In this document: positions 28,680 through 48,476 of the stretch, piece after piece
Position numbering within the stretch: position 1 is the first letter of the stretch
How the letters are laid out: every line of letters starts with the position of its first letter
From: a phage
Sequence record: QB031382.1
Direction: 5' to 3' (one strand)
DNA length: 64,000 bases
Position numbers and translations under genes: made by a program
The notes under the pieces: generated by a model
Told to the model about the DNA's origin: nothing
The model's database searches: none
The model's input: only the letters and a program-made list of their open reading frames with translations

Positions 28680-29104
28680 TGAGCACACACCCTCGTTTAG
28701 TAGACTGGCAAGAAAGATTGTGGAAAGTGTTTGACGAAGAAGCCACCGTCCCGTTTGAATGGGGATTCCACGATTGCTGCACTTTTGCGGCTAAGTGTGT
28801 TGATGCCCAATACGGAACAGATTTTCTTTCTAACTTTGAAGGAACTTATAAAACAGAGTTGGAAAGCAAGAGATGGTGTATGCTTCGTTTCAAAACCACA
28901 CACCTGCCTACTGTTTTTGATCTCTTTTTGACTCGACTGGATACTCCTAAACAGGTTCAGCGTGGTGATATTGTTATTTTCGAAGGTCTGAACGGCCTCA
29001 CCGCTGGTGTGTTCTGGAACAACCAGATTTGGGCGAAAGGTGATAAAGGGATCTTTACGTTCGATATGAAAGATTCTATCGTTGTTGATGTCTGGAGGTA
29101 TTAA
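28679..29104 (+). CDS. NlpC/P60-family peptidase-like tail protein (lambda gpK C-domain-like)
   Basis: ATG 28679 after GGGAGG. FHDCCTF matches the catalytic-Cys region of NlpC/P60 tail-tip proteins. Immediately upstream of the J-like gene. Confidence 0.5.
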   Translation: MSTHPRLVDWQERLWKVFDEEATVPFEWGFHDCCTFAAKCVDAQYGTDFLSNFEGTYKTELESKRWCMLRFKTTHLPTVFDLFLTRLDTPKQVQRGDIVIFEGLNGLTAGVFWNNQIWAKGDKGIFTFDMKDSIVVDVWRY

Positions 29105-32100
29105 TGCCAATTGCAATGATTGATAACATCGTTGCTTCTGCAAGATCTTCAAGTTATGACTGGAACGCATCCAAGGCAGCTCTGGCTGACAGCCTGAACA
29201 CTGTTACCACCAGAACTCTGGATAAGATTTTCGAGGGCAACAAATCTTACAGAAGTCAGCAAGATAGACAAAAGCTTCTCAGATCTTCTGCTGCACCTTG
29301 CTCTGTAGTATATGGAAAGACACGCACATCTGGATTGCTTGCGTTTTTGGAGCAGGACAGGGACAGAACCCTTCATTGTGCTATTGTTCTTGCTAATCAT
29401 CCCTTGGAAGGCATAGAAGATATACTTATCGACGGTAATCCTATTTCTTCGTATGGTGATTTGGTATCATGGGAGTTACATAACGACAGGAAAACCTCTG
29501 ATCCTTTCATGGGCACACACTGCCCTTCATGGTCACCAGACATGATAGGTAGAGGGATCAGTTGGCTACGTGCCAGCTTCAAGTTCGACCCTAACAAGTT
29601 TCCTTTTGGGTTGCCAAACGTTACACTCGTTAAGGTTGGTAAAAAATGCTATGATCCTCGTATCAGTAAAGAGGTGTACACCAATAACGCATCCTTGGTG
29701 ATCCTGGACTATTTAAGAACGTACCTTAAATGTCCTGACGAAACCATCAACTGGGAGTCCTTTAAGGAGGCTGCCAACATATGCGACGAGGCGGTAAAAA
29801 ACGCTGACGGAACCAGTGAGCGACGTTACACCATTAACGGTGAGTTTGACATGGATGAGGCCCCAGCAAGTATTATGGCAGAAATGCTGAAAGCTTGCGG
29901 TGCAGACCTTAGTTATGTTGCTGGTAAGTATGGTTTGCTGGTTGGTGCATACTATGGTCCGGCAACAATGACATTGAGTGAGGACTGTGTCTGTGGTGAG
30001 GTTAAGATCTATCCGGAAGCCTCATTTGACAAAAGATCTAACACAATAACTGGCAGATTCACTAGTCCGACCAAAGGGTATTCTGAAACAGATTTCCCAT
30101 CAGTGTTTGTCCCAGAGTGGATAGAGAAGGATGGAGAAAGAAAGATAATCGATATAGACTATCGCTTTGTTACCAGTCCTTATCAAGCTCAACGTGTTTC
30201 TGCAATCTTCTTAAGACGTGCTAGAGCTGGCAGGATTATTGAAGTCACCTGCAATATGCGAGGTTTTAAATTTAAGCCTGGCCGTTACGTTACAATGAAT
30301 CTCCCAAGTATTGGTATAGTAGGCCAAGAAATGAGGGTTCTTGAATGGGAGTTCACCAAAAAGGGTGGTGTCAAGGTAAAACTTCGTCAAGATGCTAAAG
30401 AGTGGAATGATGCCACAGGGCAACTTCCGGATTCTGGTGATGTAGATATTCCGATATCTCCATCTGGTGTAGCTCAACCGCAAAACTTCAGATACTCCGT
30501 CCTCCAAGCTGGGGAAATAACTCACGGTGTTCTGGCTTGGGACAACGTTGGGACTTACGCTCAAAATATTGTGCAGGTAAGAAAGAACGGAGAGATTGTT
30601 TGGACAGCACAGACAGTTGAGCAGTTTGTCCGAGTAGAAGGCTTGACCAAAGGGTCATACACAGCAACCGTGGTTGCAACATCTTATAAAGGTGGTGTAT
30701 CTCCAGAAGCGTACTGCGAGTTTAACATTCAGGCACCTGAAGCTCCTGTTTCTGTAGAGGTTAAGCAGGGATACTTTGCTATCACCTTGATTCCACACAG
30801 CAGGGATTTAGCAAGTGTAAGCACCCAGTATGACTTTTGGACATCTGGTATGACAAGGTTGCCCGACACCAGCGATGCAACCGTTACTTCAAACGCCACC
30901 CGTATGGGTGTTGGTTCAACTTGGACATCCGAAGGTCTGCAGAACGATAAGGTTTATTATTGGTATATTCGAACCACAAACGCTTTTGGTAGCTCTCAGT
31001 TTGTAGAGTGTGCTGCACGCTGCTATACCTCCATTGAGGATTTGATGCCTCAGATAGATGCTGAATTCAAAAAGACAGAAACTTATAAAGAGTTGATGAG
31101 CACTTTGGATTCCTCTATTGAAGAGGTTGAAAATCGTGTCACAGAACTTAACAGGTACATGGATGGTAGAGTTGACGAGGCTTTTGACCACATGGAAGGT
31201 GAGTTCTCTAGAGTAGACAAGCTGTATGCTCAGTTGGGAGATAGGGTTGGAATATTCATCCAAGAAACCCACGACAACTTCCAGGACGTTAATGGAACGC
31301 TTACCACTCTAGATCAGAAACTGGTAGCCACTCAGAACAAGTTTGCAGATGATCTTTCTAAAGAAAGTGGCAAGCTTGCTTCTCTAATCCAGACCACTAA
31401 CAAAGCTACAACCGATCTGTTAAATCAGAAAACTGAAGCTTTGGACGAGAAGATTGTTTCAACCAGGGGTGAGTTGGAAGATGCTTTAGCGCAGGAAAGC
31501 TCTGAGCTGAACTCCCTGATTGTATCAACCAATAAAACGACTACAGATCTCCTTAATCGGAAAACCGAGGCTTTAGACAATAAGCTGACGGCAACGAAAG
31601 GTGAGTTGACCAACAATCTGCAGAATGAGAGTGCTAAACTATCGTCCTTGATTGAGTCAACCAACAAATCCACCACTGATCTTCTTAATAAGAAAACAGA
31701 GGCGTTGGATGAAAAACTGGTTGCTGCACAGGGCGAGTTGACTGAGCAGATCGGAGATGTTGAAAAAGGCTATCTGGCTGGTGATAAGAGCCTAGAGGGC
31801 AAGTTGAATACTCAAAGATCTGAGTTGGATGCGAGCATTCTGAGCACTAACCAGGCCACTGTGGACTTGCTGAACAGAACTTCTGAGACTCTTGACCAGA
31901 AGATTAGCCAGACCAACGCCACAGTGTCCAAAAACTACACCACGCTTGATGGTAAGATAAACACCGCCAAGTCTGATCTTAATACGTTGATTTCTACCAC
32001 CAACAAGGCCACAACTGACCTGTTGAATCAGAAAACGGCAGCTTTGACTGAGCAGTTAACCACTGCTAAAGGGCAGATTACAACCAACACCAATAATATT

Positions 32101-33249
32101 ACTGGGTTGGACAATAAGCTGACTCAGACGAAGAAAGACTTGTCTGCGAATATTTCTGAAACTAATAACGCCACTGTTGATCTGATTAACGGCACAGCGT
32201 CAGCTATTCGTCAAGAACTTGCTGTTGCTAAGCAGGAGATCATTGATGGTGTTGGCGATGTGTCCGAGATCAGGGCTGCAGTAGCTACAACAGCTAAGGC
32301 TGTGACCGACTTAGAGGGTAAAGTAAATGCTCAGTGGGGTACAAAAATACAGGTAGACTCCGCAGGGAATAAATATGTTGCAGGTATCCAGTTGGGGATG
32401 GAAGGGTCTGGGGGCCAAGTTCAATCCTACTTCATGGTTAGTGCAAACAATTTTGCGGTATACAATCCTGGCAATGGAACAGCAACCCTTGCTTTCGCAA
32501 TCAAGAACAACCAAGCGTTCTTGAAAGACGCTTTTATAGAGAATGGCACGATCTCCTCTGCCAAGATCGCACAAGAAATTTCGTCAAACAACTACGATGG
32601 CAACGGGTACCATAAATACGGTTGGTATATTAACAAGAACGGGCACGCCCAATTTATGGATGTGTGGGTGAAAGGCAACATCAACGCCAGTTCTGGTAAC
32701 TTCACAGGGGCAGTTAACGCCACTAGTGGTACCTTCCGTGGGGATGTTTATGCCAATAATGGTAGCTTTAGAGGCACCATAGATGCAACCGGAGGTACCT
32801 TCCGTGGTCGTGTAGAAGCTTCTGTTATCCGTGCCAACCAGTTCGAAGGTGCAATTGTTGCACACAGGACTTACGGGGATTGTGCTCCAGTATATAACTC
32901 TCAGCAAAGGGTTTGCCGTTGGAGGTGGAGATACGTAGATAACGTTTCAGGTCAGGGTAAGAACGTAACATTCTTCTTTAAACTGAACGGTACTCTTGCC
33001 AGCTCCCAACTGAATGCATGGATAGCTGGTCATCAGATCCTTGCTGGCAAGAAGTATTTTAACGACAACAACGGCATGTGTGCGGTAGGGATAACAGGTC
33101 TGGGTGAACAAACTATAGACATTGTTATCGAGATTTACACACCGTGGTCAACGTCGAGCGTGACAGGTGTCACAATCTCCTGTCCCACTGTGATAGTAAG
33201 TCGTTCAAACTCTAGCTTCCAGGGACCTTGGAACGAGTCTCACAACTAA
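29104..33249 (+). CDS. Host specificity / central tail fibre protein, lambda gpJ-like, with expanded coiled-coil repeats
   Basis: Segments parallel lambda J as recalled: APEAPVSVEVKQGYFAITLIPH, YYWYIRTTNAFGSSQFVE, KYVAGIQLGMEGSGGQVQSYFMVSANNFAVYNP, NINASSGNFTGAVNATSGTFRG. Confidence 0.7.
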   Translation: MPIAMIDNIVASARSSSYDWNASKAALADSLNTVTTRTLDKIFEGNKSYRSQQDRQKLLRSSAAPCSVVYGKTRTSGLLAFLEQDRDRTLHCAIVLANHPLEGIEDILIDGNPISSYGDLVSWELHNDRKTSDPFMGTHCPSWSPDMIGRGISWLRASFKFDPNKFPFGLPNVTLVKVGKKCYDPRISKEVYTNNASLVILDYLRTYLKCPDETINWESFKEAANICDEAVKNADGTSERRYTINGEFDMDEAPASIMAEMLKACGADLSYVAGKYGLLVGAYYGPATMTLSEDCVCGEVKIYPEASFDKRSNTITGRFTSPTKGYSETDFPSVFVPEWIEKDGERKIIDIDYRFVTSPYQAQRVSAIFLRRARAGRIIEVTCNMRGFKFKPGRYVTMNLPSIGIVGQEMRVLEWEFTKKGGVKVKLRQDAKEWNDATGQLPDSGDVDIPISPSGVAQPQNFRYSVLQAGEITHGVLAWDNVGTYAQNIVQVRKNGEIVWTAQTVEQFVRVEGLTKGSYTATVVATSYKGGVSPEAYCEFNIQAPEAPVSVEVKQGYFAITLIPHSRDLASVSTQYDFWTSGMTRLPDTSDATVTSNATRMGVGSTWTSEGLQNDKVYYWYIRTTNAFGSSQFVECAARCYTSIEDLMPQIDAEFKKTETYKELMSTLDSSIEEVENRVTELNRYMDGRVDEAFDHMEGEFSRVDKLYAQLGDRVGIFIQETHDNFQDVNGTLTTLDQKLVATQNKFADDLSKESGKLASLIQTTNKATTDLLNQKTEALDEKIVSTRGELEDALAQESSELNSLIVSTNKTTTDLLNRKTEALDNKLTATKGELTNNLQNESAKLSSLIESTNKSTTDLLNKKTEALDEKLVAAQGELTEQIGDVEKGYLAGDKSLEGKLNTQRSELDASILSTNQATVDLLNRTSETLDQKISQTNATVSKNYTTLDGKINTAKSDLNTLISTTNKATTDLLNQKTAALTEQLTTAKGQITTNTNNITGLDNKLTQTKKDLSANISETNNATVDLINGTASAIRQELAVAKQEIIDGVGDVSEIRAAVATTAKAVTDLEGKVNAQWGTKIQVDSAGNKYVAGIQLGMEGSGGQVQSYFMVSANNFAVYNPGNGTATLAFAIKNNQAFLKDAFIENGTISSAKIAQEISSNNYDGNGYHKYGWYINKNGHAQFMDVWVKGNINASSGNFTGAVNATSGTFRGDVYANNGSFRGTIDATGGTFRGRVEASVIRANQFEGAIVAHRTYGDCAPVYNSQQRVCRWRWRYVDNVSGQGKNVTFFFKLNGTLASSQLNAWIAGHQILAGKKYFNDNNGMCAVGITGLGEQTIDIVIEIYTPWSTSSVTGVTISCPTVIVSRSNSSFQGPWNESHN
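31351..32240 (+). repeat. In-frame tandem repeats (period ~123 nt) encoding coiled-coil modules in the J-like protein
   Basis: At least three clear copies (from 31351, 31474, 31597) of L..SLI.STNK.TTDLLN.KTEALD.KL..T.GEL, then degenerate copies. Confidence 0.7.
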
Positions 33250-38682: not shown

Positions 38683-39267
38683 ATGAAAATACTTCAAGAG
38701 TTTAAGCTTTACCAGCCGGGATCTGGCGAATACCACACCAACAAAGGTACCAAGGAGCTGACTCCTCAGGAGGTTGAGGATTACACGGCATACACTGGAT
38801 ATTTTTTACGTAATGATGATGGTGATTGGTATGTGCAATCACGAACACTACGACAAGAAAATCCAGGCTGTATCTTCCTACTTGTTGACGAGAAGGGTAT
38901 TCTTAAGACATCTACAGAAGAACCTGATGCCTTGTGGCCTGCTCCAGGTCTTCGTGTGGTTATCGCCAAAAAAGAAGAGGTACCAGAAAACATTATGCTC
39001 CACCACGACGCTTTGCGTTTAGTTGGTGATGAATTTGTCACAGACAATGAATTCTTTGTTCAACAGGCAGAGGGTGTCATAGAGACAGAACTTGCTTGGG
39101 CTACTGCTAGAATTGGTGCCTATCAAGACATGATTGACCTTGAATACGATCTCACTGATGACCAAAAACGCAACATCAGAGATTTGAAAATGTACAGGGT
39201 AAAACTTCTTGAAATAGATACATCTAAAGCCCCTGACATTTTCTTCCCGGAACGACCTACCCTCTAA
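38683..39267 (+). CDS. Tail fibre assembly chaperone (Tfa-like)
   Basis: C-terminus DQKRNIRDLKMYRVKLLEIDTSKAPDIFFPERP matches the conserved Tfa C-terminal motif. Directly downstream of a fibre gene. Confidence 0.55.
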   Translation: MKILQEFKLYQPGSGEYHTNKGTKELTPQEVEDYTAYTGYFLRNDDGDWYVQSRTLRQENPGCIFLLVDEKGILKTSTEEPDALWPAPGLRVVIAKKEEVPENIMLHHDALRLVGDEFVTDNEFFVQQAEGVIETELAWATARIGAYQDMIDLEYDLTDDQKRNIRDLKMYRVKLLEIDTSKAPDIFFPERPTL

Positions 39268-41012: not shown

Positions 41013-42758
41013 ATGGCGCAAGACATGACAAGCTTCGAGCAGGCGGTAGATCAAGTAATTGTTGATTCTGAACGTTTGCACTTGATTGTCAACGGTAACG
41101 CTGTGGATGAAGTTGTCGTAGAGGATGGGACCACCATCCCTACGGTACGAAAAGCCATGCTTGACACCCTTTATTTTAAAACGCCACCAATCCCTTGGGC
41201 GTATGGTGCATCCACAACAGTTTTTAACCAGTTATATGAGTTTAAAGGGGACACAGGCCCTCAGTGGTGGTACGCTCCCGCAGCATCAAAATCTAACCCG
41301 GTTAGAATGCCAGCAGATCCTTCACAATCTCCGAACTGGAGATTATATACCGATTCTGCAGTAATGGCAAAATACTACGCAAAACTTAACAGCCCAAGAT
41401 TCGAAGGTGACCCGCGAGTACCTACACCTCCAATGGACGATAAGTCCGAGTCTATAGCAAACACAGAGTTTGTTGTGGACTATGTGGATAGCATATTTAA
41501 AGCCATGGAGGGGATGAAAGTTACTGTAGGGTCTTTGGTGGTAAAAGGTCTTACAGAACTTGCTAACACCATAGTTGGTGGCACCCTTACCTTACATGGG
41601 CCTGTTAATGGAGCGGATTCTACTGCACGCTTCAGGAACCTAATCCTTACTGCAAATACTTCTACACTGACTTTTGCGTGGAGCGATCCTAAGCATGCAG
41701 ACTGGAGAAGCACAGAGCTGCAACCTCATGAAGTAGCCACCCACAGAGTTATAGCTGACACTATAACTTCTGGGAAACCAGTGGCTAATAACAACGATGT
41801 GCATTTTGATGGTCTAGGTAATAACTTTTTTGACTACGTGTACATTCGTGGTAATGCCATGAAGGCAGCAACCGAACCGACATTGCAGGTCGATGGGACC
41901 ACCAGGGTTAAGAACCTTGAGGTGACAGGCACCGTTACAGGAATAACCTACTCTGTAGATGGCACCATGATCTACCCTAGCTATATTGAAAGCACAGGAG
42001 ATGCACTGATCAATGGAGATTTAGAGGTTGGCGGATCTATAGTCATTCGTGGCACAGCATCTGTCCAGAACATATCTTTAAATACTCTGAGGGTGAATGA
42101 GCGTGCCACTTTTGAAGGAGAAGGGCTTACAGCCAACAAAGGTGCAATTACCGAGCTGACAACCACTACTCTAACTGCAACAACTGCAAACTCTGAAAAC
42201 TGCAACGTTACCCGCAACTTGCAGGTAAATGGAGATGTTAGTTTAAACGCAGCAGGTACGGGAACCACTTATCTTCACAACCTTGGAATATCCGGCACGG
42301 TGACTGGGTGGCTGCCAGACTTCTCTAATGTTAACTTTGTCTGCAACGGCATTAACTCCAGTGGTAAGATAACCACCTCTCAAGAAATTGAGGCTGGTAA
42401 AACCATTACTGCCCCTACTTTCCACGCAGGAAAGGTAGATTTTGATTTAGAGGAGGTTGACGCATCTAGTGGGACATGGACACCTAACGGGCAGGCCAGC
42501 ATGTATGTTGTCCACGCGAAAGGGGATTTTACAATAGGCCAATGGCCTGGAACATCGGCTGAAGATAAACCTTACCCGTTTACTGCAATCATCTATGTCA
42601 TTCAAGATGCTGTAGGTCACAACGTGACTTTGCACGATAAGTATGCTATCCTGTCGGCAACACCTGTTATTAACAACAAGGCTAACAGTGTTACCTTGCT
42701 GCAATTAACGTATTGTGGTGTTGGTGATATCGTAGACGTAGTAATTGCACAACGTTAA
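41013..42758 (+). CDS. Tail fibre protein (putative)
   Basis: 581 aa, Thr/Gly/Asn/Val-rich beta-type composition; lies in the fibre cluster. Confidence 0.45.
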   Translation: MAQDMTSFEQAVDQVIVDSERLHLIVNGNAVDEVVVEDGTTIPTVRKAMLDTLYFKTPPIPWAYGASTTVFNQLYEFKGDTGPQWWYAPAASKSNPVRMPADPSQSPNWRLYTDSAVMAKYYAKLNSPRFEGDPRVPTPPMDDKSESIANTEFVVDYVDSIFKAMEGMKVTVGSLVVKGLTELANTIVGGTLTLHGPVNGADSTARFRNLILTANTSTLTFAWSDPKHADWRSTELQPHEVATHRVIADTITSGKPVANNNDVHFDGLGNNFFDYVYIRGNAMKAATEPTLQVDGTTRVKNLEVTGTVTGITYSVDGTMIYPSYIESTGDALINGDLEVGGSIVIRGTASVQNISLNTLRVNERATFEGEGLTANKGAITELTTTTLTATTANSENCNVTRNLQVNGDVSLNAAGTGTTYLHNLGISGTVTGWLPDFSNVNFVCNGINSSGKITTSQEIEAGKTITAPTFHAGKVDFDLEEVDASSGTWTPNGQASMYVVHAKGDFTIGQWPGTSAEDKPYPFTAIIYVIQDAVGHNVTLHDKYAILSATPVINNKANSVTLLQLTYCGVGDIVDVVIAQR

Positions 42759-42766
42759 TATATCTA

Positions 42767-42793
42767 ACCGCTCCTGACGGGGCGGTTTTCTTA
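42767..42793 (+). terminator. Intrinsic terminator
   Basis: ACCGCTCC / TGAC / GGGGCGGT followed by TTTCTT. Confidence 0.45.
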
Positions 42794-42806
42794 TCTGGAG
42801 AACACA

Positions 42807-45800
42807 ATGCTTCCAATCCCTTTGCTAAAACTTGGTCGTCATTTCCTCGATAAGAGGGGTGGAATTAAGGAACTTGCTGTTCTGTCATACCCAATAGACA
42901 ACAGTGATGGCACAAGCACTACAGTACCCTATGTAAATAGCTTAGCTATACTTTTTGATGATGGTCAACTTAATATCACGGGCTATAACAGGTTCGGAGA
43001 GTGCCGTACTGGGGATCTTGACACGATAAACTATCCCAACGAGGCTGCCTGGAACGTTGATCATGTGTGGAGAGCAGACCGTGCGTTTGTAATCCGAACT
43101 TTTGATAATCAGTTTTTCTACATCGGCTGCACTGCAGGGCTTATTGGGTCTGATGCCGCAGGCGGTAATGATGTTTGTGTAAGAGAGTGGACACCTCTTC
43201 CTGAACAGATCGTTAAAGGGTTGCACCTTGACACCCACCCAGAGCGCCTTATTGAGGTGATGGGTGGTATTAACAACACTGTCTGGGTTATTGCAGAGGC
43301 AGAAGGCACTGGTATACTGAACCTGTACGGGTCTGGTAACAACACCTACGGATCTTTGCATGTAGATAAAAATCAGCATGCAACCCCTGTAAAGATCGGT
43401 GAGACATCGGAAAATCCTGAAACAGGCCCTTGGAAAAACCCAAGCATTAACTGCGAGGTGCATGACAACTCTGTTATTTTCGGCGGTCCTAGAGGTTTCT
43501 GGATTGCTGGATACGATTTTCTGAGAAACAACAGTAGAAACGACCTTGTTTGGCCTCCTGTGCAGATTACTCGTAACGATTTGAGGGGCATTCCTGCAGA
43601 TGAGGAGTGGAAAGGGTTTATGTGCGGTCCTAACGGGGCAATAATTGCCACGCAGAGGATGCACACACCCAATGACCAGCAGCTTGTTAACGTATTCTAC
43701 GGGCAAAACGTCTGGGGAGATGACACATGGCGTTCCTTAAATATCACCTACACCCATGAGGTGATAATGGCTCGTGGATACGGCACAAGTGGCATTTTCT
43801 TCAATAATGGCACTAAGCAGTATCGTGGATTCTCTCGCAACTTGTGTAATGATATTGGCGCACAATCTGCAAACAATAGCCCTAGGGCCAATTTTATCCA
43901 CTATCAAGCTCTTGCCACAGCCAAATACGTTGAGCAACGCCTCCCAGTTAGCTGGACAGAGAGTGTTTATTTCCAAGGCATCCACAGGGAAGGTTTCTTA
44001 GGAACCTTTACTGTTGTTAATGGTAAACTTTGGTGGTCAGGCATCCCAAGGGGAAATTTTGCAGGATCTAATAACCTGTTTGGCGGCAGACTTAATAGCC
44101 AAGGGTTCACAGAGGTCCCCGAGAATTGGTATAAAAATGTCCCAGTAGACAGTTGGGGTGTTGAGGATATTTTCGACGTTAACGGTGTTAGCAGCGTTAG
44201 CAATATTTACATTGGTGATACGGTCAAGATGAAATTGAAGCCTCAGCCAGAAGGGGCCACGTTCATTATTGACAAGATTGAACTGGTAAATGCTGCAGGT
44301 ACGGTTGTTACAGATGCAAATTACCAATTCTCTACCAACTGGAACCACGGCGGGGCCAACGAAGTTATTGTTACCCAGTATAACAGGAATGTTAACAGGC
44401 GTGGCCTGTACTCTGTAAAAATAACCTATCATGACAAACATGGCACAGGAAGAACCCACACAACAAGGAATTTGAACTGGAACACTATCGTCCCAGCGTA
44501 TCCGTCTGATGGTAAATGGCATACTGTAGGTAGAAACAAACAGTTCCATGTTAACGACACTGTATACTTTGGACTAAATGCGGCCCAGCCTGCAGTAGAA
44601 GGGGATACATCGTATATGGTCAGACTCCATAGAATGGATGCTGGATCAGTAACTTATGATGTTACCCAAGAGATTTATAATCAGCGACGAAATACCTATG
44701 ATAACTTGGTGCAGACACAGGCCCTATGGGAGTTCAACCCAAACGGAAGGGGTGGTAAAATGTTGCAGGTCAACGAACAAAACGGGACATCGTTGACTGT
44801 TCACGAACACCCAAACCCTTGGCCTGATCCTGGGAAACCGAATTCAGGTGCTCGTACACTAAAAATTGTCAGCCATGACGTAGGATATTTCGGAATACGT
44901 TGGGAAGCCACAGTAAGATATGCCGACGGGACAACAAACAATATTGGGATTACCCTTGGCGGCACCAGTGAGGATAACTCACTGAAAATTGCCTACACTC
45001 CTAGAGGTATTTCTATTGATAATATGGATGTTGTTCGCAATGGTTACGGCGATGTGAATGTCAAAGTTACTCTTGGCGAGCACCTTGGTGGGGAAAGGAT
45101 TATCATGTATGCTTTTGATCATGATCCGCGCACCAATGGAACTTATGCAAATCAGGCATGGAGTTACCTAATAAATGCACCTGAGCCGAATACTAAAGAG
45201 TTCTACTATGGTATGAAGCGAGATGTGTGCAAGAAAACAGGAACACATGACTGGATTGCTATCTGCGTTAAAGATGAGCGCACAGCTTGGGATGAGCCTG
45301 TTAACAGATGGTTCATAGGTATTCCTACCAGAAGTGATAAGTATGTCGCAGAGTATATTGTATGCATGGGCGGTACCAACCTGAACATGTGTTGGAACGA
45401 AGATGTAAACAAATACTCTACTTATGACTATATGAGGGATTATGCTTGTAATCTGTGGTTTAGCCAAACTACAGGTTACCCTCCGCGTCAGGCGAGAGTA
45501 AATCCTGCAATCTTCACAGATACGCAGGTTTTCTTGACAAAACAGGCTAACGAGGTTCAGACCTTTAAGAACAAATACGACCCTAACAAGTGGTTCTACA
45601 ACTGTTCCGGAGCAATATTCTGGGGACCTGCTGAACTGCCTGATACAGGTTCTTGCTTAGGGGCTGCAACCTATGGCAGTGACTATATTATGGGTCAGGT
45701 CAAGAAGTACAAGATAATTCCTGGACCTGCAATTCTAGGTAATGCTGTTGACCCGTACATAAATTTCGCAGCTATACATGCTAATATGGATGGAGGGAGA

Positions 45801-48434
45801 TATCCGTTTGTTGTTCCGTTAAACTGGGGGTACAAACGTGTCGTGATGATTATTAAATGCGATCTGATCGGGAAGCAAGTTCTTGCAGAAAACGGAACCT
45901 CAACACATTTATTCGAGACTGCTCTGCACTACCAGTTTGCAGACTCACCATATGCAGGGGATAAAAGAATATCCGACACAGACTCTAAGCGCTGTAAGAA
46001 AGTTTTACTTGGAGCTGGGTGGTGGTGGTACGAGTTTGATTTGACAGATAAGTTCACAGATGATACCAAAACTCTCACAGGTATCCGTCTGAACCTTGGT
46101 GAGAACATGCATAAAAGTGTTTGTGATGGTACCTACGGTGACCCTACGGTATATCTAAAGTATGTTTCTCTTGAGCATCGCGAAGAGGATGTTTATGGTC
46201 CAAAACTGAGATTGTTTGGCTCATGGATTGCTAAAGACAGAGTAGGTATGGGTAAGAAGGTGAGAGGCTTCTTGATAGATGCAGGGACAGAAGACATGCT
46301 GGTTAATGCAGTATGGCCTGAATTACCAGGAACTCAGTGGGACAACTCTGCCAAATCTATAAACTGGTACAACATTCACAGAGCCATGTGGACCACCAAC
46401 TGCTACTTGTGGAGAGAGCTTAACGATCAGGCTTTCGGCTTCAGTAACGGTAGAAGGATGGCAATCATCTGCTGGACAACGCTGCAAAGATGTTATGACC
46501 ATGACTACGAGATTGGCGGTAGGGCATGGAAAGATATTAGGGATAGAATCATATACAATTTTGCAGATGATAATGGTGGCGGGGCGTATAACTTCGGCAC
46601 AAGCAGGCTCATCCATTTGAACGGATCCTTGGCCTACAAGAAAGAAGGCTACTCTGGGTCCATGATTGAGTGGGGTCTGGTGAAAGATGCTCGCGTATTG
46701 ATGGGTCAACAACTTGCTGCTGCAATAGGACCTAACGCAGTGCAGTCTGTCAAACCAGCGTGGTTCGATATCCCAATATGGTCACCGGGAACTGCGGCAA
46801 TCAACCCTACCACTGGGGATCTGGAAATCTCTTGGGAGGACTTAAAGCAGGTCGGTGGCTGGGATAAGACAGGCTACCAGGTGCAATGGTGGAGATCTGA
46901 CGGATCGTTAGCGGCTGATGAGTTTGTTAAGGACAATTTCTACACCATGTCCTCTGCAAAAGCACAGCAATTGTTTGGTCAGGCCACTCCGTCAACGATC
47001 ACCATGTCCATGTGCTGTAAAGACACCAGGACTGGAGCTCTGGGGCCAAGGGTTGCTAAAGTTTTCTCAGGTATTAAATGGAATCTCCCTGTTCAAGGTG
47101 TTTCATGGAAGCAAATAGGCGATAACAAGCTACTGGTTACTCCTGCCTGCCAGTTCGATGCAACTCTTGACGTTGATCCAGCTGTTGCAGCAAACTCAGC
47201 CAGAGCTTCTGACTTCTCTGTGTCTAACACTGCTATGGCAGATGTGAGAAAGATTGACACACTGAATGCCAGAATTACCTGTAAAAACACTTATGGCACA
47301 TTCCAAATCATCAACAACTTCACAGATACTGATTCTAAGGTGGTGAGGACAGCAAGCCAGACTATGCAGTTGGGTACTCTGGCATACTCTGCCCTGATCA
47401 CTGAACAGTCCTCCACTCTCCAGGGTGGTGGTGTTGGTAAGTTGATCACAACCCCTGTGTGGAAGCCAAACGAGTGGGTTGTGTTTGATTTGACTGTGGA
47501 CTTCTCCAGCGATAATAACTGGACATGGGTGAGGAATTGCTTGTCACAGCTGATGGGTGGCCCAAACTCCATTAGTGATAGCCATGACTCTACTGACCCG
47601 AGTGTGTTCCAGGTTGGTAAAACTCACCCAGAGACTGGGGCACTGTTGCCTGACAGGAAGTATGCTTTGGTTTGCATCTCCAACGGCAAGGCAGATGTAA
47701 CCTTCTCAGGGACACACACATATAACGGCACTTACAACTTCTCTAAAAAGTACAGCCTCAAGGCAGGTAACATTGTAGACGAGGTTGGTGCGTTGTATAA
47801 TCCAGGGAACGGGATAGGGATTGTGGGTGGTAAGCTGCAGATGCAGGAACCTTCTATTACCCCTTCCAATGTGCCAGGAATTAGGAAGACTTGGGAAAGT
47901 AGTGATACCAACATTGCAACAGTGGATGCTACCACAGGGCTGGTAACATTTAAAGCTACTGGGAATGTTACTATAAGGTTTGTAGTTACAGATGATGCAG
48001 GACGCAAAACGTCTTCAACATCGTTTACTGTCAAACAGATGGCACCACAGTGGAGAATGTGGATAGGTACAGCAACAAACGGGGCATATCCTAATCCGGC
48101 AGGGACTTCTGGTATGAAGACTTTCTCTACAAGCAAGCCGATGGAGTACGGCAGCGGTCCTAAGGTAGGGCAGATGGTGTACTTTGGTGCATATATTCCT
48201 GAAATTATAGGGCTTCCGAGAAGTCAGCTTCAGTTGCTGTTTGGGGCTGGTGTTGACGATCTTGCCACTTTCGGGTATAGCGACAACATCGAGGCTGCAA
48301 GGAGTTCAGGATGGGTAGGGTTCAGAATGGAGTCTGGAAAGGAAGGCAGGATTCTAGGGACAGCCTCTATAGGTGTTATGTTCCCTGGTGACCAGCAGTA
48401 TCGTCTGGGAGCCTACGCAACCTTTTCTCGTTAA
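42807..48434 (+). CDS. Giant tail fibre or host-recognition protein with C-terminal Ig-like (Big_2-like) domain
   Basis: 1875 aa, aromatic-rich. Residues encoded ~47855-48035 (TWESSDTNIATVDATTGLVTFKATGNVTIRFVVTDDAGRKTSSTSFTV) fit a Big_2-type Ig-like domain. Confidence 0.5.
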   Translation: MLPIPLLKLGRHFLDKRGGIKELAVLSYPIDNSDGTSTTVPYVNSLAILFDDGQLNITGYNRFGECRTGDLDTINYPNEAAWNVDHVWRADRAFVIRTFDNQFFYIGCTAGLIGSDAAGGNDVCVREWTPLPEQIVKGLHLDTHPERLIEVMGGINNTVWVIAEAEGTGILNLYGSGNNTYGSLHVDKNQHATPVKIGETSENPETGPWKNPSINCEVHDNSVIFGGPRGFWIAGYDFLRNNSRNDLVWPPVQITRNDLRGIPADEEWKGFMCGPNGAIIATQRMHTPNDQQLVNVFYGQNVWGDDTWRSLNITYTHEVIMARGYGTSGIFFNNGTKQYRGFSRNLCNDIGAQSANNSPRANFIHYQALATAKYVEQRLPVSWTESVYFQGIHREGFLGTFTVVNGKLWWSGIPRGNFAGSNNLFGGRLNSQGFTEVPENWYKNVPVDSWGVEDIFDVNGVSSVSNIYIGDTVKMKLKPQPEGATFIIDKIELVNAAGTVVTDANYQFSTNWNHGGANEVIVTQYNRNVNRRGLYSVKITYHDKHGTGRTHTTRNLNWNTIVPAYPSDGKWHTVGRNKQFHVNDTVYFGLNAAQPAVEGDTSYMVRLHRMDAGSVTYDVTQEIYNQRRNTYDNLVQTQALWEFNPNGRGGKMLQVNEQNGTSLTVHEHPNPWPDPGKPNSGARTLKIVSHDVGYFGIRWEATVRYADGTTNNIGITLGGTSEDNSLKIAYTPRGISIDNMDVVRNGYGDVNVKVTLGEHLGGERIIMYAFDHDPRTNGTYANQAWSYLINAPEPNTKEFYYGMKRDVCKKTGTHDWIAICVKDERTAWDEPVNRWFIGIPTRSDKYVAEYIVCMGGTNLNMCWNEDVNKYSTYDYMRDYACNLWFSQTTGYPPRQARVNPAIFTDTQVFLTKQANEVQTFKNKYDPNKWFYNCSGAIFWGPAELPDTGSCLGAATYGSDYIMGQVKKYKIIPGPAILGNAVDPYINFAAIHANMDGGRYPFVVPLNWGYKRVVMIIKCDLIGKQVLAENGTSTHLFETALHYQFADSPYAGDKRISDTDSKRCKKVLLGAGWWWYEFDLTDKFTDDTKTLTGIRLNLGENMHKSVCDGTYGDPTVYLKYVSLEHREEDVYGPKLRLFGSWIAKDRVGMGKKVRGFLIDAGTEDMLVNAVWPELPGTQWDNSAKSINWYNIHRAMWTTNCYLWRELNDQAFGFSNGRRMAIICWTTLQRCYDHDYEIGGRAWKDIRDRIIYNFADDNGGGAYNFGTSRLIHLNGSLAYKKEGYSGSMIEWGLVKDARVLMGQQLAAAIGPNAVQSVKPAWFDIPIWSPGTAAINPTTGDLEISWEDLKQVGGWDKTGYQVQWWRSDGSLAADEFVKDNFYTMSSAKAQQLFGQATPSTITMSMCCKDTRTGALGPRVAKVFSGIKWNLPVQGVSWKQIGDNKLLVTPACQFDATLDVDPAVAANSARASDFSVSNTAMADVRKIDTLNARITCKNTYGTFQIINNFTDTDSKVVRTASQTMQLGTLAYSALITEQSSTLQGGGVGKLITTPVWKPNEWVVFDLTVDFSSDNNWTWVRNCLSQLMGGPNSISDSHDSTDPSVFQVGKTHPETGALLPDRKYALVCISNGKADVTFSGTHTYNGTYNFSKKYSLKAGNIVDEVGALYNPGNGIGIVGGKLQMQEPSITPSNVPGIRKTWESSDTNIATVDATTGLVTFKATGNVTIRFVVTDDAGRKTSSTSFTVKQMAPQWRMWIGTATNGAYPNPAGTSGMKTFSTSKPMEYGSGPKVGQMVYFGAYIPEIIGLPRSQLQLLFGAGVDDLATFGYSDNIEAARSSGWVGFRMESGKEGRILGTASIGVMFPGDQQYRLGAYATFSR

Positions 48435-48443
48435 CAAGGGGTA

Positions 48444-48476
48444 AATAAAAAGGGGCCAAACGGCCCCTTTCTTTTT
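48444..48476. terminator. Bidirectional intrinsic terminator at convergent junction
   Basis: AGGGGCC / AAAC / GGCCCCT flanked by an A-run upstream and T-run downstream. Confidence 0.65.

Follow-up and report, generated by a model that had tools for sequence, protein, structure and literature searches.

We analyzed a 64,000-nucleotide stretch of phage DNA (sequence record QB031382.1, hereafter the window), which stems from a Vequintavirus, an rV5/FV3-like Escherichia coli myovirus, and characterized the 1875-residue protein encoded by the gene at positions 42807–48434. The reading that we favor, with about even confidence, sees in its product an accessory adhesin of the virion that is not essential and is probably present in low copy. 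The evidence carrying it comprises a conserved amino-terminal module common to the last tail-module genes of two other genera, a recombining distal part, dispensability of an ortholog on a laboratory host and purifying selection along the entire reading frame. According to this reading, a leader and an RCC1-like β-propeller (residues 1–440) would dock the protein on the particle, most likely at the baseplate/fibre network encoded just upstream. The other ~1,400 residues would point outward as a chain of mostly β-sandwich modules, in the order family-specific sandwiches, a jelly-roll resembling a carbohydrate-binding module (CBM), a helical module, FN3/immunoglobulin (Ig)-like domains, a single Big_2 domain and a tip that varies. 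Surface glycans may be bound reversibly by the Trp-rich CBM-like domain and the carboxy-terminal tip, with capsule, O-antigen or exopolysaccharide of particular hosts, possibly also mucus, as candidate ligands. Such binding would raise adsorption or widen the host range, and would be dispensable for the core route from enterobacterial common antigen to the lipopolysaccharide core on E. coli K-12. Read-through of the preceding terminator would keep the stoichiometry low.

The open reading frame (ORF) runs over the positions given in the preliminary description, on the plus strand and from an ATG encoding the same methionine as in its orthologs, with a GGAG 6 nucleotides upstream, and accounts for 8.8% of the window, in line with the ~9 percent estimated earlier. 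A codon-level comparison with two orthologs yielded ratios of non-synonymous to synonymous substitution (dN/dS) of 0.02–0.17 in every 125-codon block, indicating a selected coding gene and no chance ORF, with purifying selection acting throughout the reading frame. The ortholog in phage FV3 exhibits 94.5% nucleotide identity, with 96% identity at the protein level and 100% of the length covered. At least 80% of the gene is contained in each of 110 phage records. The protein matched phrog_15684, a family annotated as of unknown function, from end to end (residues 1–1875 against profile positions 1–1878, E=0). Based on synteny and size the ORF is the ortholog of rV5 gp27, a protein of 1878 residues and 208,334 Da listed as 'CHP' with Big_2 (PMC3606486 Table S3). 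It likewise corresponds to bas49_0041 and to bas54_0041, the latter with 89% protein identity at the equal genome position, both annotated in BASEL as 'lateral tail fiber protein with intimin domain' (PMC8594841). These proteins of rV5, FV3, Bas49 and Bas54 are alike in length, position, flanking terminators and Big_2 domain at 89–96% protein identity, and nothing substantive differs between them and the protein studied here. The gene is thus already catalogued: more than 100 genomes contain near-identical orthologs, and several papers discuss them; what we add is a refined annotation and no discovery, leaving its category unchanged.

We rejected 'intimin domain' as a family label, as only the Big_2 match underlies it. 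The NCBIfam model intimin_all, whose cut-off is 1400, reached 21.8 bits and covered just 39 residues of the Big_2 domain, and the PDB intimin match of the single sequence (E 0.026) extended over 40 residues of the same part. A whole-protein match to intimin or invasin, with outer-membrane β-barrel and carboxy-terminal lectin-like domain, was not obtained for the 1875-residue protein.

The features of the gene and its flanks are, by position in the window:

42766..42792, plus strand: terminator-like hairpin with T-run, 9-bp stem including 6 G-C pairs, between the 581-residue upstream fibre gene and the ORF; rV5 t028
42797..42800, plus strand: Shine-Dalgarno sequence GGAG, 6 nucleotides 5' of the ATG at 42807, read from the sequence
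42807..48434, plus strand: ORF, ATG start, 1875 codons, 208.5 kDa, isoelectric point 6.4; rV5 gp27 ortholog and phrog_15684 member
42807..42923, plus strand: amino-terminal leader, residues 1–39 (MLPIPLLKL...), conserved and common to positional homologs by alignment
42924..44126, plus strand: RCC1-like β-propeller, residues ~40–440, assigned by homology; most conserved part of the protein, blades recognizable at about residues 45–200
44127..45701, plus strand: family-specific region, residues 441–965, mostly β by predicted secondary structure, without homolog outside the family
45702..46211, plus strand: predicted CBM-like β-jelly-roll, residues ~966–1135, modeled as a 13-strand β-sandwich (confidence 75–87), overlapping the recombination hot block of residues 876–1125
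46212..46790, plus strand: Trp/Cys-rich helical module, residues ~1136–1328, conserved with invariant columns, modeled as helices (confidence 22–35)
46791..47813, plus strand: FN3/Ig-like β-sandwich array, residues ~1329–1669 (confidence 53–86), strongly divergent between homologs
47814..48065, plus strand: Big_2 domain, residues ~1670–1753, Pfam PF02368 at residues 1683–1730 (confidence 75–92)
48066..48431, plus strand: variable carboxy-terminal domain, residues ~1754–1875, two alleles in E. coli vequintaviruses, modeled with moderate confidence
48449..48470, bidirectional: terminator-like hairpin common to the convergent minus-strand genes; rV5 t027/t026

Confidence values are predicted local distance difference test (pLDDT) scores from AlphaFold2 (AF2) monomer models of both halves of the protein (residues 1–845 and 846–1875), calculated with a 16-sequence alignment.

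The amino-terminal leader and predicted propeller module

The amino-terminal part recurs in two further genera. Using tblastn, we detected residues 1–197 in Phapecoctavirus (39–40% identity) and Seunavirus (~30%), and BLASTP with the same segment returned terminal tail-module homologs with 40% identity and an E-value of 2e-27. The Phapecoctavirus homolog ukendt gp231 (890 residues) as well as the Seunavirus homologs GAP31_232 and 4MG gp038 (567 residues) are each encoded by the last gene of the tail module. Aligning the target family with these shorter homologs by hhalign resulted in a probability of 99.4% and an E-value of 7e-22 over residues 1–197, and the multiple alignment with them remained colinear up to about residue 440.

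By Pfam, the shorter homologs comprise an RCC1-like domain and two Big_2 domains, where PF00415 reached 23.9–36.9 bits, above its cut-off of 21.7, and the E-values for WD40_RLD were 1e-9 to 1e-10 over residues ~40–330. The joint profile retrieved only RCC1-like seven-bladed propellers from the PDB, led by UVR8 (1e-8), HERC1 (3e-7) and HERC2 (9e-7), with RCC2, RPGR, ATS1 and RCC1 further down. The target alone matched phrog_4219, 'regulator of chromosome condensation', at residues 42–189 (E 3.2e-7), and the same family matched the positional homologs of the target with E-values of 1e-34 to 1e-44. On these sequence comparisons residues ~40–440 are assigned as an RCC1-like propeller, of which the first three or so blades are directly recognizable and the remainder would follow by colinearity. 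The domain length of ~400 residues and the colinearity with the homologs fit seven blades. In the AF2 model, β-strands were found at residues 20–235 and 398–413, with pLDDT below 50 for residues 215–407. Aligning residues 1–460 with themselves by hhalign to find propeller repeats yielded a single weak off-diagonal match (E 0.6) and no significant internal repeat; a protein search with the same residues found only near-identical fragments, and a cross-genus alignment as query added only homologs of the Seunavirus type. In a side observation, PF26918 was seen to be shared by P0001 and the target's Seunavirus homologs.

The earlier statement that the protein has no recognized anchor motif is therefore outdated, as residues 1 to ~200–440 form a conserved module that recurs in the positional homologs of two other genera and is hence the evident candidate for an anchor; the leader itself may possibly serve as a virion-docking peptide. 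The phrog_4219 proteins W70_237–239 were abundant in purified W70 virions, with 141–233 spectra by mass spectrometry (PMC11370258), indicating that the propeller family is a genuine virion module in the Vequintavirinae lineage. The amino-terminal module of the 1875-residue protein additionally matched phrog_11922 ('tail protein').

The central and carboxy-terminal regions

The central 1,000 residues have no detectable homologs outside the family in the libraries searched. A HMMER profile of residues 441–1420, scored against 1.84 billion representatives of ~15 billion proteins, found only three members of the own family, and a PDB sequence search with a profile of residues 201–1400 found nothing. 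Segment-wise searches of Pfam and NCBIfam at permissive thresholds gave no match for residues 461–1660, and Pfam at E≤10 on five segments yielded only Big_2-type matches and a weak RCC1_2 match. No enzyme family was matched by the protein in Pfam, NCBIfam, the PDB or the representative library, including any characterized non-structural enzyme, the kind of match that the preliminary description had named as speaking against a fibre-like protein.

Within residues 441–965, the AF2 model (pLDDT 48–74 in β blocks at residues ~447–560 and ~737–840) suggests that the region probably holds two or more β-sandwich domains. The helical module contains the invariant residues E1162, D1163, H1191, R1192, E1235, E1280, E1288 and W1289 and is densely invariant in homologs down to 41% overall identity; it had no homolog in Pfam, NCBIfam, the PDB or the representative library. 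The FN3/Ig array exhibited 12–44% identity to distant homologs. The model of residues 846–1875 was partly confident, with a mean pLDDT of 57.0, and an independent BFVD model of the carboxy-terminal fragment of phage V18 superposed on it with a template modeling (TM) score of 0.90. Foldseek matches of the carboxy-terminal model comprised chains of Ig-like domains, among them NUP210, cadherins, S-layer proteins, Hoc and Ig-bearing head/tail proteins; from the search with the entire model these are only generic multi-Ig chains with a TM score of ~0.1 and without aligned query ranges, and assign no individual domain. The Big_2-type Ig-like domain described earlier near the carboxy terminus was confirmed at residues 1683–1730, scoring 29.6 bits for the whole protein and 34.6 bits for the carboxy-terminal segment against a Pfam cut-off of 22.8, and is the sole Pfam family above its cut-off. 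The variable domain distal to it (residues ~1754–1875) is a candidate ligand-binding tip.

The aromatic richness noted before is mainly one of tryptophan, with 3.09% against 1.63% in the pooled other large ORFs of the window, a level resembling that of the adjoining glycosidase-domain fibre proteins; the sum of W, Y and F is 11.4% against 9.7%.

Sequence conservation declines along the protein, as the identity to distant homologs fell from 55–83% for residues 1–450 to 12–43% for residues 1426–1875. The final ~225 residues are absent from two homologs (P0011 and P0014). Extra-diverged blocks were observed at residues 451–750 in P0015, merely 20–28% identical to the target, and at residues 976–1050 in four homologs. 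Between close relatives the synonymous divergence (dS) jumps from block to block, from 0.07 to more than 1, with hot blocks at residues 876–1125, overlapping the CBM-like domain, and 1751–1875. The last 316 residues fall into two allele groups with 95–99% and ~79% identity, and MaxBurger shows 64% identity over residues 1751–1866 with saturated dS. The copy in the window combines the commoner carboxy-terminal allele (95–99% group) with a distinct allele of the block of residues 876–1125. A conserved amino terminus together with a recombining distal part is, at the sequence level, the classical signature of a virion-anchored host-interaction protein.

Putative virion association, dispensability and alternative explanations

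The placement of the gene connects it to the tail. It is the final gene of the long plus-strand structural block and is followed by a terminator-like hairpin and convergent minus-strand genes, bearing out its earlier description as the last late gene. Its position as the closing gene of the tail-fibre block, preceded by the gp28 ortholog and followed by convergent early genes, is collinear in EmilHeitz and MaxBurger and is kept in a metagenomic homolog with 41% identity. For rV5, Table S4 lists t028 with the same sequence as well as t027/t026, and no promoter for gene 27 (PMC3606486). The late-promoter motif TGGTAAAATA occurs in four perfect copies in the plus-strand structural block (8184, 13347, 27496 and 33313), at least three of which fall between listed ORFs; none of this type was found between the hairpin at 42766–42792 and the ATG. 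Bracketing by two strong terminator-like hairpins combined with the lack of an own late promoter suggests expression by read-through and hence a low copy number, with which the sparse rV5 peptide coverage of 3.1% would agree.

Virion data exist for rV5, where multidimensional protein identification technology (MudPIT) assigned 3 peptides and 9 spectra to locus 27, corresponding to 3.1% coverage (PMC3606486 Table S5). The same table lists a 660-residue protein of rIIA size on two weak peptides. Peptides were accepted there at any tryptic status, and the rIIA-size protein among the low-count identifications calls for caution with the minor 'virion proteins' of this dataset. We regard the rV5 evidence for gp27 itself as weak, and the virion membership envisaged in the preliminary description is to this extent weakly supported.

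Transposon sequencing of Bas54 (HIDEN-SEQ) placed bas54_0041 among the fibre genes tolerating disruptive insertions (10.1101/2025.11.20.689424), so that it is dispensable for K-12 infection and for producing infective virions. Independent natural disruptions agree with dispensability on laboratory hosts: in magaca the gp27-type gene is interrupted by an in-frame stop at codon 617 and in naswa by a frameshift near codon 788, both phages having been isolated on K-12 MG1655, and in V18 it has several lesions plus a deletion. Split ORFs of the gene from ime and APECc02 are contained in the BFVD library, and a shortened form of 557 residues (P0016) represents 77 metagenomic sequences. The function was left open in the preliminary description; the dispensability of the ortholog on E. 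coli K-12 now narrows it.

Several observations weigh against the accessory adhesin. The target alone matched Pfam RCC1_2 only with an E-value of 0.059, under the cut-off, and the amino-terminal profile of the target family by itself found no RCC1 structure in the PDB. The model of residues 1–845 is poor (mean pLDDT 42.6) and the helical module is not modeled, which makes the number of blades (seven) and of domains, as well as the monomeric state, tentative. That the protein is anchored by its amino terminus is something we infer, as is the placing of CBM-like matches on residues 966–1135, where sugar binding is putative. An enzymatic role is conceivable for the strongly conserved helical module, given its invariant acidic, His and Trp residues, and 'adhesin' would then be incomplete. 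The three rV5 peptides are of low quality, carry Sp ranks of 1, 9 and 14 and are non- or semi-tryptic. Cryo-electron microscopy (cryo-EM) of Bas49/Bas54 resolved only three fibre densities near the baseplate against nine annotated fibre genes, leaving the gp27-type protein unplaced (PMC12143355), and sequencing errors may explain part of the apparent knock-outs among deposited genomes.

The BASEL label implies a canonical homotrimeric lateral tail fibre, forming or capping one lateral fibre set out of the three on phi92-/rV5-like baseplates, which would be a primary receptor-binding fibre for certain hosts. We consider this unlikely, although it is the foremost of the alternatives. The location within the fibre module, the amino- to carboxy-terminal divergence and the allelic variation are in agreement with it, and the low AF2 confidence for residues 1–845 would also be expected for monomer predictions of intertwined trimers. 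Unspecified lateral fibre genes moreover turn conditionally essential on clinical isolates (10.1101/2025.11.20.689424). The fibre-like character claimed earlier accordingly holds for the position closing the tail-fibre/baseplate module, the BASEL label, the divergence and the mosaic alleles, but not for the hallmarks of a fibre. Pfam searches of the segments found no β-helix, collagen, coiled-coil, tail-spike N-domain or Peptidase_S74 in the protein, whereas adjoining fibre genes do show Tail_spike_N, Peptidase_S74 and Phage_Tail_Tip. A chaperone gene is lacking directly downstream, where the terminator and opposite-strand genes are located instead, and the only Caudo_TAP gene (38683–39267) is not adjoining and serves short fibres. 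The recognizable folds, the RCC1-like propeller, the CBM-like jelly-roll and the Ig/FN3/Big_2 domains, are usually monomeric. Also the absence from the three fibre densities fitted in Bas49/Bas54 and the apparent dependence of expression on terminator read-through speak against a lateral fibre.

A Hoc-like decoration or whisker on capsid, neck or tail tube, whose Ig-like domains would adhere weakly to mucus or environmental glycans (the 'BAM' model) without host recognition, would account for a protein that is dispensable in the laboratory but maintained by purifying selection in nature. The carboxy-terminal 300 residues indeed match phrog_215 ('structural protein with Ig domain', head and packaging) with an E-value of 6e-48. 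We dropped this category as evidence for the location, however, because V18, APECc02 and ime have the gene as split ORFs and phrog_215 probably just holds fragments of gp27-family genes. The gene closes the tail-fibre module at a distance of ~30 kb from the head genes, and homologs without the carboxy-terminal 225 residues argue against a carboxy-terminal capsid anchor; we find such a decoration improbable. We give slightly less credence again to an enzyme-bearing protein, a depolymerase or glycan-modifying protein in which a new kind of catalytic domain would lie at residues ~1136–1328 and be directed to a polysaccharide by the CBM/Ig domains, a role not exclusive of an adhesin. The dense invariant acidic, His and Trp residues at 1150–1300 in homologs of 41–93% overall identity, the CBM-like domain directly upstream in the usual CBM–catalytic arrangement and the Trp enrichment shared with the adjoining glycosidase-domain fibres would suit it. 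Against this stand the lack of any enzyme-family match in Pfam, NCBIfam, the PDB and the representative library and the AF2 confidence in the helical module, at which no fold is assignable; conservation alone is no proof of catalysis and could equally reflect an inter-domain or virion-contact element.

Least probable to us is a late-expressed non-virion protein, soluble or cell-associated, for instance released upon lysis to bind or block receptors or debris, with the mass spectrometric identification being a false positive or contamination. The non-tryptic rV5 peptides with their Sp ranks and the rIIA-size entry in the same table would be compatible with it, as would the lack of a location by cryo-EM and the dispensability for infective virions. 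The gene is, however, co-oriented within the structural module, and its amino-terminal module falls into phrog_4219, a family abundant in purified virions of a related phage, and into the 'tail protein' family phrog_11922. The sequence of the amino terminus further contains no signal peptide or other export feature. The accessory adhesin remains the reading that we favor.

Relation to known systems and neighbouring genes

The closest relatives outside the genus, the terminal tail-module proteins of Seunavirus (PVP-SE1/GAP31/4MG, 567 residues) and Phapecoctavirus (phAPEC8/ukendt gp231, 890 residues), are alike in last-gene position, leader, an RCC1-like propeller as predicted for the target, and Big_2 domains downstream. 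They are two to three times shorter and lack the ~1,200-residue insert (sandwiches, CBM-like, helical and FN3/Ig domains) as well as the carboxy-terminal tip, the Phapecoctavirus homolog having a weak BspA-type leucine-rich-repeat tail instead. An RCC1-like repeat propeller is also common to phrog_4219, W70_237–239 (Septuagintavirus) and multiple proteins of the phAPEC6 jumbo phage. These stand-alone proteins are single-domain, ~40 kDa in size and encoded elsewhere in the genome, whereas the propeller of the target is the amino-terminal module of a 208-kDa protein of the fibre locus. For the stand-alone RCC1-like virion proteins their authors speculate on DNA condensation.

T4 Hoc, the lambda gpV Ig domain, T5 pb6/pb10 and Big_2 adhesins (intimin, invasin, Leptospira Lig) resemble the target in their tandem Ig/Big_2 domains at a surface, in being dispensable in the laboratory and in their proposed weak carbohydrate binding. 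Compared to the Hoc- and intimin-type proteins, the target lacks the intimin β-barrel, LysM and lectin domain, is far larger than Hoc, is encoded among the tail-fibre genes and combines a predicted propeller and CBM-like domain with a helical module found in no other protein of this comparison. β-propellers are also present in host-recognition proteins of Gram-positive phages: phi11 Gp45 and the receptor-binding proteins of phage 812 contain five-bladed propeller platforms within trimers and bind N-acetylglucosamine of teichoic acid. The propeller itself is the likeness, and the target differs in that its propeller is RCC1-type, with seven blades expected, amino-terminal and the most conserved part of the protein. 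This gives it the appearance of an anchor rather than of a receptor-binding head.

The RCC1-like amino-terminal module and its recurrence in the last tail-module genes of two other genera appear to be unreported in the searchable literature, as do the homolog-free central 1,000 residues, the CBM-like domain and the terminator-bracketed context. A more far-reaching proposal, which we advance tentatively and think rather doubtful, is that the gp27 family represents an undescribed class of phage host-interaction protein. This would be a monomeric 'beads-on-a-string' adhesin with an RCC1-like propeller in place of a trimeric adaptor in a contractile-tail baseplate, with a homolog-free core of ~1,000 residues and possibly a new glycan-active fold in the helical module. 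By extension, RCC1-like phage virion proteins would be docking or adhesion modules and no DNA-condensing factors, which suggests a testable structural role for such proteins in the virions of other large phages.

Vequintaviruses rank among the broad-host-range coliphages isolated most often, and cocktails for therapy and biocontrol make use of them. The largest of their nine 'fibre' genes does not resemble a classical fibre. Given its dispensability, the gene could be deleted or swapped without loss of viability, freeing 5.6 kb of cargo space, and residues ~876–1125 together with the carboxy-terminal tip would be the places to seek determinants of host range or mucus binding.

The fibre module itself is larger than described before. 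Seven other fibre/spike genes and ~19 kb had been counted, whereas the nine fibre genes annotated in BASEL total 22.7 kb in the window, or 17.1 kb without the 1875-residue gene. Among these nine is the gene at 29104–33249 (1381 residues), labeled in BASEL as a lateral tail fibre with FN3 but matching Ig_J, Ig_J_second and Phage_Tail_Tip in Pfam. This identifies it as a lambda-J-like tip or hub protein, and the true receptor-binding fibres of the locus are accordingly fewer than nine. The upstream neighbor at 41013–42758 (581 residues) is the rV5 gp28 ortholog, annotated as 'lateral tail fiber with glycosidase domain'; an ortholog of its product carries PF26208 and PF26209, named after phage phiTE protein 241, in precomputed annotation, and the product itself gave no match in the Pfam release searched, which lacks both families.

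Among the database records, fifteen or sixteen 'Campylobacter phage' entries (GenBank MG0656xx; host C. jejuni) exhibited ~90% nucleotide identity to E. coli vequintaviruses over the whole 5.6-kb gene. These records are unannotated, and the attribution to C. jejuni looks doubtful. Fragments 96–99% identical to the protein (P0018 and P0028) are deposited as 'hypothetical protein, partial' from Eggerthella lenta and Escherichia coli, and are probably phage reads or contamination within bacterial assemblies. Elsewhere in the window, the ORF at 202–792 (196 residues) is unusual in its composition, with 7.1% Cys and zero Trp.

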